From IMG/VR virus record IMGVR_UViG_2541047812_000002, positions 1 to 5,344 of that record: 5,344 nt of DNA; one strand, written 5' to 3'. The position numbers were made by a program, and so were the translations under genes. Below the pieces are notes generated by a model. That model was given only the letters and a program-made list of their open reading frames with translations. It did no database searches and was not told the origin of the DNA. Below are positions 1-5,344 of this stretch, in pieces (position 1 is the first letter of the stretch; each line of letters opens with the position of its first letter). Source of the stretch: a virus (lineage: Duplodnaviria; Heunggongvirae; Uroviricota; Caudoviricetes).

Positions 1-73
1 TTTAACCAGGGCGGGTATCGCTCGGTTTCGGGTATAACCTTAGGAAATTTTTTCCCACCTGTAAAGCACTTTT

Positions 74-105
74 TATATAAATCTATAATTATATATTTAT
101 AGATT
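74..105. repeat. Iteron cluster A: four tandem 8-bp AT-rich units (TATATAAA TCTATAAT TATATATT TATAGATT), related to the clusters flanking the par genes
   Basis: Read directly from sequence. 8-bp periodicity with units starting TATA/TCTA. Contains TTATATAAATCTATA (74-88), the exact reverse complement of TATAGATTTATATAA found in clusters B and D. Outer arms AAATCTATAA / TTATAGATTT form a 10-bp inverted repeat. Confidence 0.6.
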
Positions 106-156
106 TTCGATGTTCCCGATATCTACACACCATCAAAACAGCTCAAAATGACACTT

Positions 157-534
157 TTACTCTCTTCGCTTTTTCAAATAGTCGACAACATACGCCCTGG
201 CTTTTGCCAGCTTCCGGCGATACTGTCTGAGACTAAGAGAAAGGGCGTGGGCTTTATCAATATGCGGTGCATTTATGTCGAGGCCCCGAATCTCCCACGC
301 CCCGTATTCAATTCGGACAACCAGCGCCGCAGTCTCATCAACTACCGTGAGGGCCGTCACCGCTCCCTCGATACTGGTTTCCAGTGAGTCATTTGGTGCG
401 CCGCCCCCTCCGGTAAACTGGCAGCGCGTAACCATCATCATTTCTAACATCGACGCGAAACCGCTACGGGCGTTGCAGCCATTGCGCACCCACAGCGCCC
501 ATAGCTCAAACAAGCTATCCAGATCGCGTCTCAC
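157..534 (-). CDS. Putative phage antitermination protein Q-like (short QuuD-type family)
   Basis: 125-aa ORF, last gene of the coupled minus-strand operon (3-nt gap to the upstream gene). N-terminal LFELWALWVRNG motif and helix-rich C-terminus (LSLSLRQYRRKLAKARAYVVDYL) resemble my recollection of the Phage_antitermQ family. Position at the distal end of a cro-led operon fits. Assigned from memory, not a search. Confidence 0.4.
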   Translation of the reverse strand: MRRDLDSLFELWALWVRNGCNARSGFASMLEMMMVTRCQFTGGGGAPNDSLETSIEGAVTALTVVDETAALVVRIEYGAWEIRGLDINAPHIDKAHALSLSLRQYRRKLAKARAYVVDYLKKRRE

Positions 535-537
535 TGT

Positions 538-870
538 TCAGATCTCCCGTATCGTGACGGGATAAAGCGCCTCTACCTGCTTTTTCTTCATGATGTAGAC
601 GTCTGTTCGCACACCTTTAGTGTCGACACAATCAATCGTCCCATCGTCATAAAACACCATGAAATCAAGTTTATAAACGACACCACCTGGCAGATGAAAA
701 GGCACCTGCATAAGAAACGTCACAACGCGGCCAGCTTTTCTCAGTAGCTTCAGTTCGCAGTAGTAATCAGCCTCTTTTTTGCTATCAAAAGAGATATCAT
801 CGACAACAGTTTTTTTATTGCCGTATTTGCTTTTCCTGGTCGCTGGTTTGCGAAAGCCGGTATATCTCAT
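538..870 (-). CDS. DUF1064-family phage protein (putative nuclease/resolvase-like)
   Basis: 110-aa translation contains KYGNKKTVVDDISFDSKKEADYYCELKLLRKAG ... YKLDFMVFYDDGTIDCVDTKGVRTDVYIMKKK ... IREI, matching the conserved pattern I recall for DUF1064 proteins (KYGNKKT..DG..FDSKKEA..Y.EL.LL.KAG ... DF.Y ... DVKG..T..Y..KKK). Start overlaps the upstream gene stop by 4 nt (ATGA). Confidence 0.65.
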   Translation of the reverse strand: MRYTGFRKPATRKSKYGNKKTVVDDISFDSKKEADYYCELKLLRKAGRVVTFLMQVPFHLPGGVVYKLDFMVFYDDGTIDCVDTKGVRTDVYIMKKKQVEALYPVTIREI

Positions 871-1271
871 TTGGTATCCCCTGGTACTTCACCAAGACTA
901 AGATCAAACCCAATTTCGTCTTTAACTGACTGCGGCAACAGCTCCCACGTCTGCGCACACAAAAATTCATCGGTGCCATAACGCTCAACAAAGCGAGCAC
1001 AATTACTCAGGGGAGGGTGACGAACGGCAATATGCGGAGGCACGCGCCCACCACCAGGCACAACACCGCGATGATGTGGTGCGCACAACCCAAAGCTATG
1101 GAAGTGGCAATTCTCATCAACGCTGCCGTAATCAGGATCGTGATGTAGCTCCGTCCACAGCTCTGGATTCTCAATTTCACGGCCATCAATAATGCAAGCT
1201 ATGCAACCCACGTGAGTGAGCACCGCTTGTATATAAAGTTTCTCTTTCTTCGTTGGTGTACGTCCGTTCAT
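867..1271 (-). CDS. Cys/His-rich hypothetical protein, possible Zn-binding phage nuclease-like protein
   Basis: 134-aa ORF in the coupled operon. Contains CIAC, HHD, CHFHSFGLC and HH clusters suggestive of metal binding. AAGGGG Shine-Dalgarno about 5 nt upstream of the ATG. Family not confidently recognised. Confidence 0.5.
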   Translation of the reverse strand: MNGRTPTKKEKLYIQAVLTHVGCIACIIDGREIENPELWTELHHDPDYGSVDENCHFHSFGLCAPHHRGVVPGGGRVPPHIAVRHPPLSNCARFVERYGTDEFLCAQTWELLPQSVKDEIGFDLSLGEVPGDTK

Positions 1272-1504
1272 CAGCGCCCCTTACCATTGATAAAGAGGTT
1301 GAACTCGTTGATTAACTGGACATACATGCTTCTGGCCGCGTAGTTCTTTGCCAGCTCTTTACGGGATGAGATCCCGCAAAACTCACGCAGAATCACAGAG
1401 GCCTCAGAACTGTTTGAAACGTTCTTCCCTGTTTTACTGGTCAGAAAGCGCCAGAATTGGGGATTCTGGCAATGCATCGCAGCACCGCGAACATAACTAC
1501 TCAT
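1271..1504 (-). CDS. Hypothetical small protein (77 aa)
   Basis: ORF in the coupled operon: its start overlaps the upstream stop (ATGA) and its stop shares one nucleotide with the downstream start (TGATG). No recognisable motif. Confidence 0.4.
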   Translation of the reverse strand: MSSYVRGAAMHCQNPQFWRFLTSKTGKNVSNSSEASVILREFCGISSRKELAKNYAARSMYVQLINEFNLFINGKGR

Positions 1505-2016
1505 TGATGGCCCCCGTCATTTCTGGTGCTTTTCACCGTGCGGCTTCTTAAAAACCTGCCATCACGAACAACAGACACTTCTCGTTTACCCAACCTCATT
1601 TCACGGCGGTAACATTCAGAAAATGCCTCGTCCGGCATCATATAAATGCGACGCTTCGCCTCCGTATCCAGAAGGGAACGGCTTGGGGTTACATATAAAA
1701 ACGACTCATCAATAGGGACAAAACCACGAGCAAGAATTGCTGGCAGAATGCCAGGAAGAACGCAGAAAACAGCTCCACGATGCAGCAACATCAGGTACTC
1801 CATGACCTCCGTTATCCCCGTGACTACTGTTACGGTGTCACGTCTGTTACGGCTGGCAACCAGTCGCTGCACACGTCCAATTTTCTGATCTACAGATAGA
1901 TGTTTGCTATCGTTATCAATATGATCGATAGCAAATCCTTTAATCGTTTGATCAAGGTAGTGCACCACCTTCGATTGAATCTGGTGATTATCACCAAAGA
2001 AGGCCAGAATCATCAT
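1501..2016 (-). CDS. Hypothetical protein (171 aa), second gene of the early operon
   Basis: Long ORF whose ATG overlaps the stop of the cro-like gene (ATGATGA). GGGAGG and GAGGA Shine-Dalgarno candidates upstream. No family recognised from the sequence alone. Confidence 0.55.
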   Translation of the reverse strand: MMILAFFGDNHQIQSKVVHYLDQTIKGFAIDHIDNDSKHLSVDQKIGRVQRLVASRNRRDTVTVVTGITEVMEYLMLLHRGAVFCVLPGILPAILARGFVPIDESFLYVTPSRSLLDTEAKRRIYMMPDEAFSECYRREMRLGKREVSVVRDGRFLRSRTVKSTRNDGGHQ

Positions 2017-2507
2017 TCCTCAAGCCTCCCAAGTGCTGAACGCCGGGCGTTGCTAATCTCCTTATGAATCAGCTCGATATCGCTGGAATCTTTATTCTTA
2101 AGCTCCAGCACGGTAATCGCATCACGAACCTCTGAAACGGTTACGTGTGAGTGTTTCCAGCGAGCAATGAATCGCGGACCGCGTAGATTGCAACGCTCCG
2201 CAGGCATCCCCAACTCAGAGAAAACCGCTTTCAGCCTTGATAAGCAGTTAACAGGGAGATTCCCTTTGATCTTGTTCTGCCGAACCGATGTGCCATCGCT
2301 ACGCTGGCGCTGACGTTCGGCAAAATCTGCCGCCCATTGCTGGACGTTAATCCGGCCTTCCGAATACGCCACCAGCAGCGTCAGGTTATCCGCACGAGGG
2401 AATCTCTCGAAGCGATACCAGGCACCAATCAGTGATGACGTAAAGCCAAACTTTCTGGCAACACCAATTTGGCCTCCATTTTCGTCAACCCACTCCTGAA
2501 AGGTCAT
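2013..2507 (-). CDS. Cro/CII-like HTH DNA-binding protein with about 100-aa C-terminal extension
   Basis: 164-aa ORF transcribed divergently from the repressor gene. N-terminus (QIGVARKFGFTSSLIGAWYRF) has the pattern of Cro/YdaS-type HTH proteins. GGAG Shine-Dalgarno 8 nt upstream of the ATG. Promoter and operators lie immediately upstream. Confidence 0.55.
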   Translation of the reverse strand: MTFQEWVDENGGQIGVARKFGFTSSLIGAWYRFERFPRADNLTLLVAYSEGRINVQQWAADFAERQRQRSDGTSVRQNKIKGNLPVNCLSRLKAVFSELGMPAERCNLRGPRFIARWKHSHVTVSEVRDAITVLELKNKDSSDIELIHKEISNARRSALGRLEE

Positions 2508-2526
2508 TTAACGAACTCCAGTTAAA

Positions 2527-2541
2527 ACCACGATATGTGGT
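2527..2541. promoter_or_regulatory. Operator-like palindrome O1 (ACCAC-GATAT-GTGGT)
   Basis: Perfect 5-bp inverted arms ACCAC/GTGGT with a 5-bp spacer. Lies just downstream of the -10 of the putative cro-like promoter, on the minus strand. Confidence 0.5.
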
Positions 2542-2570
2542 ATTAAAACCACATATCGTGAGTTTTTCAA
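2542..2570 (-). promoter_or_regulatory. Putative sigma70 promoter of the cro-like/early operon
   Basis: On the minus strand: -35 TTGAAA (2565-2570), 17-bp spacer, -10 TTTAAT (2542-2547). A T10 tract (A10 on the plus strand, 2576-2585) lies just upstream and could act as a UP element. Operator O2 fills the spacer. Confidence 0.45.
2548..2562. promoter_or_regulatory. Operator-like palindrome O2 (ACCAC-ATATC-GTGAG)
   Basis: Same ACCAC-N5-GTG(G) architecture as O1, with one imperfect arm. Its core is the reverse complement of the O1 core. Occupies 15 of the 17 spacer positions between the -35 and -10 of the putative cro-like promoter. Confidence 0.5.
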
Positions 2571-2628
2571 TGGGCAAAAAAAAAATAACCTTCTATTTGT
2601 GGTCCACCTCTCGTCTTACCATGTGAAA

Positions 2629-2643
2629 ACCACTAAATGTGGT
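2629..2643. promoter_or_regulatory. Operator-like palindrome O3 (ACCAC-TAAAT-GTGGT)
   Basis: Third copy of ACCAC-N5-GTGGT. Sits 5 bp upstream of a TATAAA -10-like hexamer (2648-2653, with TG at 2646-2647) about 28 bp ahead of the repressor ATG. Confidence 0.45.
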
Positions 2644-2680
2644 AATGTATAAATAACCCACCATTCACGATTGATGAGAC

Positions 2681-3337
2681 ATGAAAAGCAACGACGAGAA
2701 CATCAAGAAAGAAATAGGTCTGCGCATTCAGACTCTACGGAAACAATCCGGCATGACTGCCGGAGATCTCCAGCAAGTCACTGGAATAGGCTTAAGCACC
2801 TTGCAGAACTATGAGGCCGGATTAAGACAACCATCTATACCTGCCATCAAGAAAATCGCGCACGCCCTGAAAGCATCAGCGCCTTATATCGCGTGCTTAA
2901 CAGATAACCCGTTCCCACCCCAGAATACTAACGCTCCTGTTATTCCTGGGCTTGTAGCTATAAAAAATGACATAGCATCGCACGCCGGAGAAAAGCCAGT
3001 GCTGGCGATAGAACAGGAGATTCTACGAAGCAAGAACATCAACCCATCGTCTCTGTCAGTTCTCCAGAGCAACGATGAGTTAATGTCACCAACAATATCC
3101 CCTGGCTCCCAAGTCCTGATTGATACAGACGATACAGAGATTCATGAGGGGATCTATGCCCTTGAAGACAGAAATGGCCTGGTTGTTTTGAGGCACTGTA
3201 GAGTCATACCGGGTGACAATGCTGTTATGCTGTCAACCGAAAGGGATGCTGAAATGAACACTAAGCATCTGAATAACGAGGAATTTAAGCGTTATAAAGT
3301 TCTGGGCCGCGTAGTTAGTGTTGTCAACTGGTTATGA
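2681..3337 (+). CDS. CI-like transcriptional repressor: N-terminal XRE-type HTH plus C-terminal S24 (LexA/CI)-like domain, apparently catalytically degenerate
   Basis: 218-aa ORF. Residues about 11-70 have the classic XRE HTH pattern (GMTAGDLQQVTGIGLSTLQNYEAGLRQPSIPAIKKIAHAL). The C-terminal 90 aa align to the S24 fold (LMSPTISPGSQVLIDTD ... YKVLGRVVSV), but the GDSM serine position reads DELM and the conserved lysine position is R/H. Confidence 0.7.
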   Translation: MKSNDENIKKEIGLRIQTLRKQSGMTAGDLQQVTGIGLSTLQNYEAGLRQPSIPAIKKIAHALKASAPYIACLTDNPFPPQNTNAPVIPGLVAIKNDIASHAGEKPVLAIEQEILRSKNINPSSLSVLQSNDELMSPTISPGSQVLIDTDDTEIHEGIYALEDRNGLVVLRHCRVIPGDNAVMLSTERDAEMNTKHLNNEEFKRYKVLGRVVSVVNWL

Positions 3338-3379
3338 TACACAGCACGGCGAAAGCCGTGCATTTCTACGCTCAAAAAA

Positions 3380-3394
3380 ACCACATTTTGTGGT
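3380..3394. promoter_or_regulatory. Operator-like palindrome O4 (ACCAC-ATTTT-GTGGT)
   Basis: Fourth copy of the motif, within the longer palindrome AAAACCACATTTTGTGGTTTT, between the repressor stop and the next gene. A TTGACA hexamer follows at 3395-3400, and AGAGG (3419-3423) precedes the ATG at 3430. Confidence 0.45.
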
Positions 3395-3429
3395 TTTGAC
3401 AACATGTGAAAGTATAAAAGAGGCTACGC

Positions 3430-3804
3430 ATGGAATTACATACAGCCAATAAAAACGAAACTCTGATCACTGCTGGAATCGAAATCCAAGCGTTGAACAT
3501 AGCGATTGAGTGTATGTTATGCCAAATCATTGATAATGAGAAAGATATCGACTGGATATCATCTACCCTTCATCTTGCTTACGAGCAAAAAGCCTGCCTC
3601 AAAACAGCCTTACAATACGATGTGCCTTCTGTATCAAAGCTGTGCCAGTCATTGATGGCATATAACAGAGCTATCATTTCTGTATGCCTCATGATTCTCG
3701 ATGAGAATACCCCTCTTAGCGACCGCTCAGAAGCAGCTCTAACCCTCTCACGTAAACAGCGACAGCTAGCAAATCAACTGATATCAACGATAGCTGACCT
3801 CTGA
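3430..3804 (+). CDS. Hypothetical protein (124 aa) downstream of the repressor gene
   Basis: ORF with a good Shine-Dalgarno (AAGAGG, 6-nt spacing) and a stem-loop terminator immediately after its stop. Predicted mostly helical. No family recognised. Confidence 0.5.
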   Translation: MELHTANKNETLITAGIEIQALNIAIECMLCQIIDNEKDIDWISSTLHLAYEQKACLKTALQYDVPSVSKLCQSLMAYNRAIISVCLMILDENTPLSDRSEAALTLSRKQRQLANQLISTIADL

Positions 3805-3808
3805 CTGC

Positions 3809-3828
3809 AAGCGGGCTAACGCCCGCTT
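3809..3828 (+). terminator. Putative intrinsic terminator (stem AAGCGGGC / GCCCGCTT, loop TAAC)
   Basis: Perfect 8-bp GC-rich stem with a 4-nt loop starting 5 nt after the stop at 3804. Followed by AT-rich sequence, though not a clean T-run. Confidence 0.45.
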
Positions 3829-3859
3829 ATATGATTATAGATTTATATAATTATATAAA
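3828..3859. repeat. Iteron cluster B: four tandem 8-bp units (TATATGAT TATAGATT TATATAAT TATATAAA)
   Basis: Read directly from sequence. The 23-mer TATAGATTTATATAATTATATAA (3836-3858) recurs with one mismatch in cluster C. Confidence 0.6.
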
Positions 3860-3881
3860 ACGCTTTTCATCCGCCAAAAAG

Positions 3882-3910
3882 TTGGTTATGCTTACCTCGT
3901 TCTATAAATA
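3882..3910 (+). promoter_or_regulatory. Putative par operon promoter overlapping iteron cluster C
   Basis: -35-like TTGGTT (3882-3887) and a -10-like TATAAA/TAAATA within 3903-3910 at 15-17 bp spacing, between iteron clusters B and C, about 45 bp upstream of the parA-like start. Weak consensus match; inference only. Confidence 0.3.
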
Positions 3911-3932
3911 TAGATTTATAGAATTATATAAC
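3901..3932. repeat. Iteron cluster C: tandem 8-bp units (TCTATAAA TATAGATT TATAGAAT TATATAAC)
   Basis: Read directly from sequence. 3909-3931 (TATAGATTTATAGAATTATATAA) differs from the cluster B 23-mer at one position. Ends 23 bp before the parA-like start. Confidence 0.6.
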
Positions 3933-3954
3933 CAAACACATGGAGTCTCGACAA

Positions 3955-4608
3955 ATGACTATCTCTGTAGGTATTTTCAACGGAAAAGGCGGCGTAACCA
4001 AATCAACAATTGCCCGTGCTTTAGCAGTTGCTTATGCAAAGGCTGGCTGGAATGTATGCCTGATCGATATGGATGTGCTTAACGGAACGGTAACGCGTTG
4101 GGTACAACGCAGAATGGCCAACAATATCGAACCAGCAATCGCGGCGCAGCCGTGCGGCACACCATCACAAGTCCAGAAAATCATCGAATCAGAAGTATAC
4201 GACCTGGTTATCGTCGATGGCGGTGCCTACGCATCTGAATCAGTACCGAAGCTCTCTGAATTTCTGGATATGGTTATTTTGCCAACCAGATTCTCTACCG
4301 ATGACCTGGAAACCACCGTTAACACAGCTCACGGCATCGTTAAAAAGGGTGTACCAATCAAGAAAATTTGCATGGTGTTTTCCGGCGCGGCTGAAAACGA
4401 AGCTGACTATATTGAAGCCCAAGAGTACCTGGCTAATACGCCATACTTTGTTGTCGATAAGTACATTCCCCACAAGCCAGCTCTGAGCAAAGCTCAGGAT
4501 AAGGGCTTAAGCCTTATTGAGTGCTCATACGTTGCGCCACGCAAAAAGGCAGACGATGTTATCCAGGGGATTATCAATCAGCTTGAGGCTCTGACTACTG
4601 CCGCGTAA
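3955..4608 (+). CDS. parA: ParA/ParF-family partition ATPase (small, type Ib; deviant Walker A)
   Basis: N-terminus MTISVGIFNGKGGVTKSTIARALAVAYAKAGWNVCLIDMD carries the deviant Walker A motif KGGxxK[ST] typical of ParA/MinD ATPases. About 217 aa, the size of ParF-type proteins. I prefer the ATG at 3955 (GGAG 9 nt upstream) over the track's ATG at 3940, which has no Shine-Dalgarno. Confidence 0.85.
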   Translation: MTISVGIFNGKGGVTKSTIARALAVAYAKAGWNVCLIDMDVLNGTVTRWVQRRMANNIEPAIAAQPCGTPSQVQKIIESEVYDLVIVDGGAYASESVPKLSEFLDMVILPTRFSTDDLETTVNTAHGIVKKGVPIKKICMVFSGAAENEADYIEAQEYLANTPYFVVDKYIPHKPALSKAQDKGLSLIECSYVAPRKKADDVIQGIINQLEALTTAA

Positions 4609-4640
4609 TATATAATTATAGTTTTATAGATTTATATAAA
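4609..4640. repeat. Iteron cluster D: four tandem 8-bp units (TATATAAT TATAGTTT TATAGATT TATATAAA) filling the parA-parG spacer
   Basis: Read directly from sequence. Begins immediately after the parA-like stop (4606-4608) and ends 11 bp before the parG-like ATG. Shares TATAGATTTATATAA with cluster B. Confidence 0.6.
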
Positions 4641-4651
4641 AGGGGATACAC

Positions 4652-4900
4652 ATGGCCGCACCATCAAAACCACCGAAAAAGAACAGCAAAGGCGTACCGC
4701 CATCAATCGAACAACCGCAGGTTTTCGACCCGACTGAAACGCCGACCAGAACCAAATCAGGTGGGGCACAAATGGCGTTTAACGTCGACCCTGAATTTAA
4801 ACGCGAGTACAAAACGTTCGCCAGCTCAATGGATATGTCATTGAAAGAAGTGCTGACAAAATCTTTTGAGTTACTCAAGGCTCAATACAACCAGAAGTAA
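4652..4900 (+). CDS. ParG-like ribbon-helix-helix centromere-binding protein (82 aa)
   Basis: Immediately downstream of the ParA-like gene, with an AAGGGG Shine-Dalgarno. C-terminal 40 aa (MAFNVDPEFKREYKTFASSMDMSLKEVLTKSFELLKAQY) fits a beta-strand/helix/helix RHH pattern similar to TP228 ParG as I recall it. N-terminal 40 aa is a Pro/Lys-rich, probably disordered tail. Confidence 0.6.
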   Translation: MAAPSKPPKKNSKGVPPSIEQPQVFDPTETPTRTKSGGAQMAFNVDPEFKREYKTFASSMDMSLKEVLTKSFELLKAQYNQK

Positions 4901-4962
4901 GAGAAGGTGACGGCCTCCAGCGCCAACTGTTGGCCGTCGCGACACAACAAGGGGAATTTGTT

Positions 4963-5112
4963 ATGTCCGAGCAACAATATACACGGTTACTGAAAACTCG
5001 TCTAACCGACCTCAAACGGCTGCAAGCTGGTTGCTTATTTGCCCTGCTATCTACCAGGCCAGAATGGGTACGTGAAGCAGTTCTGAAAGGTTTAATGCGC
5101 TCCAGCGTTTAA
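4963..5112 (+). CDS. Hypothetical small protein (49 aa from the ATG at 4963; the track ORF starts at 4930)
   Basis: AAGGGGA Shine-Dalgarno 7 nt upstream of the ATG at 4963. Stop codon TAA (5110-5112) lies 9 bp before the IS terminal repeat. No motif recognised. Confidence 0.3.
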   Translation: MSEQQYTRLLKTRLTDLKRLQAGCLFALLSTRPEWVREAVLKGLMRSSV

Positions 5113-5120
5113 ATTCAACC

Positions 5121-5344
5121 GGCTTTGTTGAATAAATCGAACTTTTGCTGAGTTGAAGGATCAGATCACGCATCCTCCCGACAACACAGACCATTCCGTG
5201 GCAAAGCAAAAGTTCAGAATCACCAACTGGTCCACCTACAACAAAGCTCTCATCAACCGTGGCTCCCTCACTTTCTGGCTGGATGATGAAGCGATTCAGG
5301 CCTGGTATGAGTCGGCAACGCCTTCATCACGAGGAAGGCCCCAG
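5121..5344 (+). mobile_element. IS903-group insertion sequence (IS5 family), left end; partial, continues past the window
   Basis: 5121-5138 GGCTTTGTTGAATAAATC matches the 18-bp terminal inverted repeat of IS903 as I recall it. The following 200 bp match the known IS903 left end with a few substitutions. Confidence 0.85.
5198..5344 (+). CDS. tnp: IS903-family (IS5 family) transposase, N-terminal 49 codons (partial; GTG start; runs off the window)
   Basis: Translation from GTG 5198: VAKQKFRITNWSTYNKALINRGSLTFWLDDEAIQAWYESATPSSRGRPQ, near-identical to the IS903 transposase N-terminus as I remember it (MAKQKFKITNWSTYNKALINRGSLTFWLDDEAIQAWYESATPSSRGRPQ). Absent from the ORF track because it lacks an ATG and is truncated by the window edge. 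Confidence 0.8.
   Translation, partial: MAKQKFRITNWSTYNKALINRGSLTFWLDDEAIQAWYESATPSSRGRPQ

Follow-up and report, generated by a model that had tools for sequence, protein, structure and literature searches.

8-bp repeat arrays and a predicted ribbon-helix-helix protein suggest a type Ib-like partition cassette on an E. coli phage-plasmid

The 5,344-nucleotide stretch of DNA analysed here, positions 1 to 5,344 of IMG/VR record IMGVR_UViG_2541047812_000002 (Caudoviricetes) and called the window below, carries parA, a gene for a small ATPase, followed by a gene for an 82-amino-acid (82-aa) protein with a predicted ribbon-helix-helix (RHH) fold. Three arrays of 8-bp repeats, B, C and D, lie at these genes, with 12 units within 813 bp. 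We suggest that this is a type Ib-like partition cassette in which the RHH protein binds the arrays as both centromere and operator, and may also regulate further operons on the same ~48-kb element; we put the probability of this reading at about 0.65. An original prediction, made from the letters of the window, had proposed B, C and D as candidate centromere and autoregulatory operator sites. That proposal fits the par arrays, but not in its purely local scope: arrays of the same kind lie at five non-par places, one of them at 73-104 in the window, and "centromere plus auto-operator" is therefore too narrow a description.

Repeat arrays at the par cassette

Three methods place B, C and D where they had been predicted, each made of short tandem 8-bp units. 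Tandem Repeats Finder (TRF) reports period-8 arrays at 73-101, 3827-3858 (4.0 copies), 3909-3928 and 4616-4636, and a repeat search places a further site, at 74-106, together with B, C and D in a single 33-nt family. A position weight matrix (PWM) scan, in which an array is called from at least three in-register units, finds four arrays in the window and eight in the 48-kb element, against none in 300 dinucleotide-preserving shuffles of each. Shuffling the pooled array sequence alone (94% A+T) gives 0.57 arrays against the 8 observed, a control that is partly circular because the matrix was derived from those very units. A chance origin of the arrays is excluded.

Read in register, each par array is four units long: B is TTATATGA TTATAGAT TTATATAA TTATATAA, C is TTCTATAA ATATAGAT TTATAGAA TTATATAA, and D is ATATATAA TTATAGTT TTATAGAT TTATATAA. 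The consensus unit is TTATAKAW, and the arrays are 91-94% A+T, compared with 53% for the window. The whole element has 32 units; all of them share T4 and A5, 28-31 have T2, A3 and A7, and position 6 varies between T and G. The unit TTATATAA, a perfect palindrome, is closest to the downstream gene in six of the eight arrays and next-closest in the other two; TTCTATAA and ATCTATAA are TTATAGAW units in inverted orientation. As in type Ib loci, short repeats in direct and inverted orientation form arrays at the predicted promoter of the operon, and their 8-bp recurrence in both orientations is that of ParG-type sites, with a core that differs from ACTC.

The predicted spacing was right with one correction. 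B and C share a 23-mer with one mismatch (3836 and 3909), and they end 96 and 23 nt, respectively, before the parA ATG at 3955. The spacer between parA and the RHH gene is indeed 43 nt, but D was said to fill it and covers 31 of the 43. Array D (4608-4639, + strand, four units) runs from the final base of the parA stop codon, which it overlaps, to the Shine-Dalgarno sequence of the RHH gene (AGGGG), which together with its spacing makes up the remaining 12 nt.

Layout of the par region

Array B (3827-3858, +) consists of four 8-bp units and ends 5 nt before a predicted -35 hexamer. The predicted par promoter (3864-3892, +), read by eye, comprises TTTTCA (3864-3869), a 17-nt spacer and TATGCT (3887-3892), with a predicted transcription start at about 3899-3900. 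Array C (3900-3931, +), whose first unit of four is inverted, begins 7 nt after TATGCT. This placement would put B roughly between -41 and -72 and C roughly between +1 and +32.

TTTTCA and TATGCT are too weak to pass the consensus promoter scan, and the promoter was positioned from the hexamers and their conserved placement. The equivalent hexamers are TTCCAA-17-TATCAT in Salmonella, TTCCAA-17-TATGAT in the related locus L013 (loci used for comparison carry L numbers) and TTTACT-17-TAATCT in L014, whose RHH protein is 46% identical; the sequence around the hexamers has diverged in all three. B and C had been predicted to bracket a promoter-like region, and the predicted hexamers do hold their position in E. 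coli, Salmonella and the 46%-identical relative. It had also been suggested that D could control the RHH gene differentially. A look for a promoter within D gave nothing convincing: its best promoter-like hexamers are TTGAGG-17-TAATAT, which match at 8 of 12 positions and fall under the scan threshold.

Directly upstream, a GC hairpin (3809-3828, +; stem GCGGGC/GCCCGC, loop TAAC) ends the preceding gene, which encodes a 124-aa protein, and abuts array B. It looks like a terminator, and was missed by the terminator scan because its T run is broken. The layout of hairpin then array is also found in Salmonella, in L014 and L015, and at another array of the element, at 27066.

ParA and the RHH protein

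The gene pair fits what had been predicted, a small ParA and an RHH protein, with Pfam and NCBIfam matches for the first and AlphaFold2, Foldseek and hhalign results for the second. parA (3955-4608, +) encodes a 217-aa small Walker ATPase with the motif GKGGVTKST; GGAG lies 9 nt before its ATG, which is also the RefSeq start. As in other type Ib ParA proteins, the deviant Walker A motif is near the N-terminus and there is no N-terminal DNA-binding (helix-turn-helix, HTH) domain. Its Pfam matches are CbiA/ParA/MipZ, it falls in the ParA-like family phrog_164 (8.9e-39), and it distantly matches ParF of TP228 (4dzz, 3e-4). The NCBIfam model ParA_partition matches residues 5-206 of 217 with 78.6 bits, under its 180-bit cutoff.

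The RHH gene (4652-4900, +) encodes a basic tail (residues 1-40) followed by the RHH domain (41-80). The 82-aa protein belongs to phrog_6024, a family whose function is not characterised in PHROG. A word-indexed homologue search reached only relatives of at least 79% identity, and a first AlphaFold2 model built on 10 close homologues was discarded, with a predicted local distance difference test score (pLDDT) of 65 and only ribosomal noise from Foldseek. An exhaustive profile search recovered about 100 relatives of 75-90 aa, with an N-terminal motif MA..KPPKK..KG.PP, a variable linker and a C-terminal LNFKV..EF.REFK.FA...D.SM.ELL...FE..K. With the deeper alignment, AlphaFold2 gives a pLDDT of 92-97 at residues 41-80, where an extended segment precedes two helices (47-59 and 64-80); the model is of a monomer, in which the beta-ribbon of the RHH fold cannot show. 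The tail is basic and proline-rich and contains an invariant K13-G14; the model gives it no regular secondary structure (block pLDDT 63-72).

Among the best 40 Foldseek matches, most are RHH proteins (StnY, CdbA, AmrZ, CopG, ParD, Arc), with target TM-scores of up to 0.86 and a root-mean-square deviation of 1.1-2 Å over ~42 residues. With hhalign, the ParG RHH domain is matched at 84% probability, and the best match of the family profile in the PDB is ParG (1p94) over the RHH domain, at E=0.099. Pfam RHH_10 is matched by 29 of 57 relatives, while PF09274, the ParG family, is touched weakly by 4 of 57; the similarity to ParG is remote and does not amount to membership of that family. The assignment of the 82-aa protein as an RHH protein seems well supported by these models, though not proven. 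By its predicted fold, it is the small downstream gene product with a flexible N-terminal tail that is typical of type Ib loci.

Conservation in close and distant relatives

In Salmonella elements the DNA flanking the arrays is 71-82% identical, yet there are arrays at all eight positions, and the DNA between B and C, which holds the predicted promoter, has diverged while the arrays were kept. The element of E. coli ATCC 25922 (plasmid NZ_CP009073.1) has arrays at the same eight places, which are 16212, 21357, 22065, 22138, 25898, 27115, 31392 and 32536 in its own coordinates. Array B is conserved in 13 related loci, with three units in Salmonella. Between window 3430-4900 and the Salmonella locus L002 (5616-7086), ParA is 96%, the RHH protein ~90% and the upstream 124-aa protein 60% identical; the par cassette appears to be the most conserved part of the region, or else was recently exchanged.

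Array D is present in Salmonella and confined to the E. coli/Salmonella clade. It has four units in most copies, five in the IMG/VR locus L012 and seven in the ECOR39 plasmid (NZ_LT985302.1, L004 6809-6864). The changes are always of whole TTATAGAT units, between otherwise near-identical plasmids, which is consistent with replication slippage in a tolerated binding array. An array between the ATPase and RHH genes had been called unusual. Within the family it is, since none of nine distant relatives has one, their parA-RHH junction being overlapping or at most 33 nt long; it has a precedent outside the family, in pSM19035.

These nine distant IMG/VR cassettes have RHH proteins 33-46% and ParA proteins 30-52% identical to those of the window. 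At 10 of 11 loci (the nine, the window and Salmonella L002), the strongest self-similarity upstream of parA is at a lag of 8 or 4. The units are AATCTTTA in L014, GCGAATTA in L016, TTCTGTAT in L020 and GATAAAGA in L021; in L016 the GCGAATTA arrays lie on either side of the gene pair, before parA and after the RHH gene. The period is kept and the unit changed, which links the repeats to the RHH protein as its probable cognate sites. The predicted DNA-facing beta-strand residues are Q-A-N here, compared with L-N-N in L014 and L023. The ~125-aa gene upstream of par (124 aa here) is not conserved in the distant cassettes, which leaves ParA and the RHH protein as the sole immediate neighbours that accompany the arrays; on the same ground, the 124-aa protein was rejected as a third component or array binder.

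L023 is a syntenic relative with the same gene order and 33-67% aa identity. It has AATCTTTA-type arrays at six sites in 20 kb, against 0.19 expected. One of them lies at the position equivalent to array A of the window (73-104), 4 kb from par and directly upstream of a -35 (TTGTCA-17-TACTAT). The dispersed arrays therefore follow the unit type of the par promoter. No copy of the L014 element was found in PLSDB, and a scan of genome contigs returned two Pantoea loci only.

Arrays outside par

All eight arrays found by the PWM scan of the complete element are intergenic, and five are at non-par transcription units. Four end 5-8 nt before a predicted -35, and three sit just before a ribosome-binding site. 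Arrays are thus found at several predicted promoters, including those of non-par genes, as in omega-type systems. Among the leftward units headed by arrays are a DUF3560 gene, a block in the direction of the genes for holin and lysozyme, and the region that precedes the ParB/Srx and terminase genes.

Array A (73-104, - strand), with four units, lies 3.7 kb from par and ends 7 nt before a leftward promoter, TTTACA (60-65), a 17-nt spacer and TAAGGT (37-42), which reads out of the window towards the DUF3560 gene. The arrays at 21682 and 37180 of NZ_CP080230.1, like A, end 7 nt before TTTACA-17-TAAGGT. An identical leader of ~75 nt follows all three and heads three different leftward genes; window 1-72 is part of it.

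The whole forms a threefold module of array, 7 nt, TTTACA, 17-nt spacer, TAAGGT, ~45-nt leader, GGAG and ATG, found before three unrelated genes (window 1-104, - strand; NZ_CP080230.1 21595-21721, 28197-28314 and 37093-37203). The Salmonella copies of the module are ~87% identical to the E. coli copies and nearly identical among themselves, which suggests concerted evolution. A structured RNA leader was considered and dropped, the 72-nt leader folding no better than shuffles (z = -0.47) and having no Rfam match. The spacer of the module promoter (window 43-55, -) holds an inverted repeat, GGAAA-N3-TTTCC, which in Salmonella is AGGAAAATATTTCCT; in L023 the equivalent spacers, 5177-5193 and 11090-11106, hold another inverted repeat, TAGGTC-N5-GWCCTA. 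These repeats look like a second operator for another regulator, and the module promoters may therefore be under dual control.

Two further arrays of NZ_CP080230.1 have other surroundings. The array at 27066 comes after a hairpin, and 14 nt separate its end from a start codon, much as in C (23 nt) and D (12 nt). Downstream of the array at 22826 are a putative tRNA gene and a gene for a methyltransferase, and this array may head a transcription unit that comprises both. The tRNA-like sequence, with a CAT anticodon read by eye, lies downstream of this array in an annotation gap at 22304-22980.

Proposed mechanism and alternatives

We infer the binding, its stoichiometry, the repression, the centromere activity and the role of D by analogy with ParG of TP228 and omega of pSM19035. 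Dimers of the 82-aa RHH protein would bind cooperatively, one per 8-bp unit (core T-A-T-A-K-A), and about four dimers would coat each array. B (upstream of the -35), C (over the start) and D (at the parA/RHH junction) would together be the centromere and form the partition complex, at which the basic N-terminal tail with K13-G14 would engage ParA. The same par arrays would serve as operator, with the RHH protein autoregulating and repressing the par promoter; repression is more likely than activation. The most likely role of D is to provide further binding units within the operon, and it may also be a roadblock that damps RHH synthesis relative to ParA. The RHH protein most likely also occupies the five other arrays, either as an omega-like regulator of several operons or at dispersed centromere sites.

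A bolder version seems rather unlikely. In it, the RHH protein would be a copy-number-sensing master regulator that couples segregation with the lysogeny-to-lysis programme. It would occupy ~32 units per copy, at par and at the DUF3560, lysis-proximal, tRNA/methylase and late-region units, and keep them down at low copy; on amplification after induction it would be titrated away, with D tuning the ParA:RHH ratio.

Several points weigh against the partition reading. The 82-aa protein itself matches no Pfam family (E<=0.1), no NCBIfam model and, by phmmer, no PDB sequence, and its predicted RHH fold comes from a family profile, a monomer model and Foldseek matches whose E-values are weak (0.5-5). 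The arrays are >90% A+T and contain -10-like hexamers, as promoter or UP-type elements or H-NS sites might. There is no array downstream of the RHH gene, and D is absent from the distant relatives and is therefore not needed for partition across the family. The units of L023 and the window differ by one base in a shifted register (ATAGATT and AAAGATT) and the scans cross-hit, which weakens the argument from the changing unit sequence, and at least three clean units are found at only two of the six L023 sites.

The strongest competitor, which we consider unlikely, is that the arrays are operators or promoter elements for another binder, be it a regulator of the element, host H-NS or Fis, or RNA polymerase alpha in an UP-like manner, and that their presence at par reflects a shared promoter design. 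Such a binder would suit the five of eight arrays at non-par units, three of them fused to an identical promoter-leader module, as well as the A+T content of 91-94% in a window of 53% and the TATAAT-like hexamers in the arrays, which the scan flagged on the minus strand; the element also encodes several other HTH proteins. Yet distant cassettes such as L016 (GCGAATTA) and L020 (TTCTGKMT) keep the 8-bp period in arrays that are more than AT-rich DNA, and this period is out of helix phase and so does not suggest curvature. D lies inside the operon beside a ribosome-binding site, where an UP element would make no sense, only ParA and the RHH protein among the immediate neighbours are conserved with the arrays, and the CI-like repressor of the element has distinct palindromes of its own.

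It is less probable still that the RHH protein binds the arrays purely as a transcription factor, with ParA using some other centromere or the cassette not being active in partition. The geometry is centred on promoters, with arrays ending 5-8 nt before a -35 or preceding a ribosome-binding site, and three ParB/Srx-domain proteins are encoded elsewhere on the element. Operator repeats are, however, the centromere in every characterised type Ib system (PMC3130281, PMC9499535, PMC5016525). The ParB/Srx genes are in the packaging region and not beside parA, the RHH tail has a conserved basic KG motif akin to ParA-stimulating tails, and the element is maintained as a plasmid.

That the arrays are replication iterons for RepA, or chance low-complexity DNA, is highly improbable: the original prediction did call them iterons and the element does encode RepA, but the nearest array is 2.6 kb from repA (39788-40768), around which no clear Rep-type iterons were found, no arrays arise in 300 shuffles, and all eight positions are conserved in Salmonella. 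Typical Rep iterons are 17-22 bp, far longer than these 8-bp units.

Host element and neighbouring features

The full record has genes for capsid, terminase, contractile tail, holins and lysozyme as well as RepA, a RelE/ParE toxin-antitoxin pair and ParA, and is therefore a phage-plasmid. Over positions 3400-5120, the window matches the E. coli plasmid pP136-7 (NZ_CP080230.1, 48,077 bp) at 100% identity and ~56 further Escherichia plasmids (non-mobilizable, ~46-52 kb) at 96-99%. The PLSDB matches are 61 plasmids of ~44-52 kb and one 94-kb record, and three Yersinia myophages are ~98% identical over the same part of the window. The cassette occurs in 71 of 5426 complete E. coli genomes, ATCC 25922 being one carrier of the ~48-kb phage-plasmid, and 71 of 72 occurrences are on plasmids. 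Together with the PLSDB plasmids and the encoded RepA, this gives the extrachromosomal location of a type Ib locus. Phage-plasmids are common gene carriers in Enterobacteriaceae. We know of no studies of the maintenance functions of the ~48-kb E. coli phage-plasmid, and the literature on vB_YpM_39/41, pP136-7 or phage-plasmids with an RHH centromere gave nothing about the present par system.

Downstream of the RHH gene, after a hairpin at 4909-4938, lies a conserved 49-aa open reading frame (4963-5112, +) with the motif MS.QQY..L..RL.DL...PEW.... Homologues occur at the equivalent position in Salmonella (86%), L017 (43%) and L014 (33%), with a weak match to phrog_22022, and it may be a third gene of the cassette. 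Eight nucleotides past it sits the end of an IS5-family (IS903-like) insertion sequence, which occupies the last ~220 nt of the window (~5121-5344) and begins with GGCTTTGTTGAATAAATCG. That related plasmids are without this insertion is seen from their similarity, which ends at window 5120, and the source of the window therefore departs from pP136-7 there.

The gene for the CI-like repressor (2681-3337) has an HTH_3 and a weak Peptidase_S24 match. It is flanked by palindromes of the type AAAACCAC-N6-GTGGTTTT at window 2524-2565, 2626-2643 and 3377-3400, which are probably operators of this repressor and unrelated to the 8-bp arrays. An Rfam scan of the window gave no match at E<=1.

Significance

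The analysis proposes a function for the uncharacterised phage protein family phrog_6024, and a probable binding code in which each array has four 8-bp units built on a TATAKA core, with eight predicted sites. If the dispersed arrays are true operators, the control of phage genes involves a partition protein, and the idea known from omega and KorB would extend to a Gram-negative temperate phage. If they are not, the locus is a well-documented new type Ib par locus.

Comparison with known systems

The locus is most like parFGH of TP228 and delta-omega of pSM19035, and by sequence is a member of neither. In TP228, one ParG dimer binds each 4-bp box, and the boxes are separated by 4-bp AT spacers, which gives an 8-bp period in direct and inverted orientation; ParG binding is cooperative and coats the DNA at the centromere as well as the operator, and the ParG tail serves to activate ParF (PMC3130281). 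In both loci the gene for a small ParA comes first and is followed by that for a ~80-aa protein, which combines a C-terminal RHH domain (predicted here) with a flexible tail at the N-terminus, and both have two clusters upstream of the operon, which in TP228 are the centromere parH and the operator OF (PMC3130281) and here are B, just upstream of the predicted -35, and C, from about +1. They differ in the core, which is TATAKA here and not ACTC, and in the lack of a Pfam ParG match. TP228 has 12 + 8 contiguous boxes, whereas here short four-unit arrays are split into B, C and D, with one array between the genes, five elsewhere on the replicon, and a phage-plasmid as host.

In pSM19035, the arrays bound by omega overlap three promoters, and ParA activation requires a contiguous run of four or more repeats (PMC9499535); omega is expressed from a separate promoter, which repeat arrays overlap (PMC9499535, PMC5016525). 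In this inc18 system of Firmicutes the RHH centromere-binding protein is a global regulator, as is proposed here, and short contiguous direct and inverted repeats lie at several promoters, one of them between the ParA and RHH genes (PMC9499535, PMC5016525). The need for at least four repeats is matched by arrays that typically have four units here. On the other hand, the repeats there are the 7-bp WATCACW in arrays of 7-10, whereas here they measure 8 bp and an array has 3-5 of them (up to 7); parA and the RHH gene seem to share a transcript here, with D lacking an evident promoter; and the host is Gram-negative, the candidate regulated genes are phage genes, and there is no sequence similarity to omega. 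No omega-family Pfam match was found for the 82-aa protein or among the families most matched by its relatives, and it does not belong to that family.

The type Ib locus par2 of pB171 has an RHH protein, ParB, that binds two clusters of 6-bp repeats (parC1 and parC2) flanking the par genes. The relative L016, with arrays upstream of parA and downstream of the RHH gene, is similar in layout. In the window the extra site is between the genes and not after them, and the repeats are of 8 bp and not 6 bp.

Scattered partition sites are known from N15 (sopC), itself a phage-plasmid, and from RK2 (the OB sites of KorB), both cited in PMC5016525; in R388, several operons are under the control of StbA, a protein that binds to repeat arrays (bioRxiv 10.1101/2022.04.29.490116). 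Unlike the protein proposed here, these are HTH ParB/KorB or StbA types and not RHH proteins, they use palindromes or 9-bp repeats, and they have no homology to the present system. Within the type Ib kind, the cassette is set apart by the junction array between the parA and RHH genes together with the set of eight arrays across a phage-plasmid.

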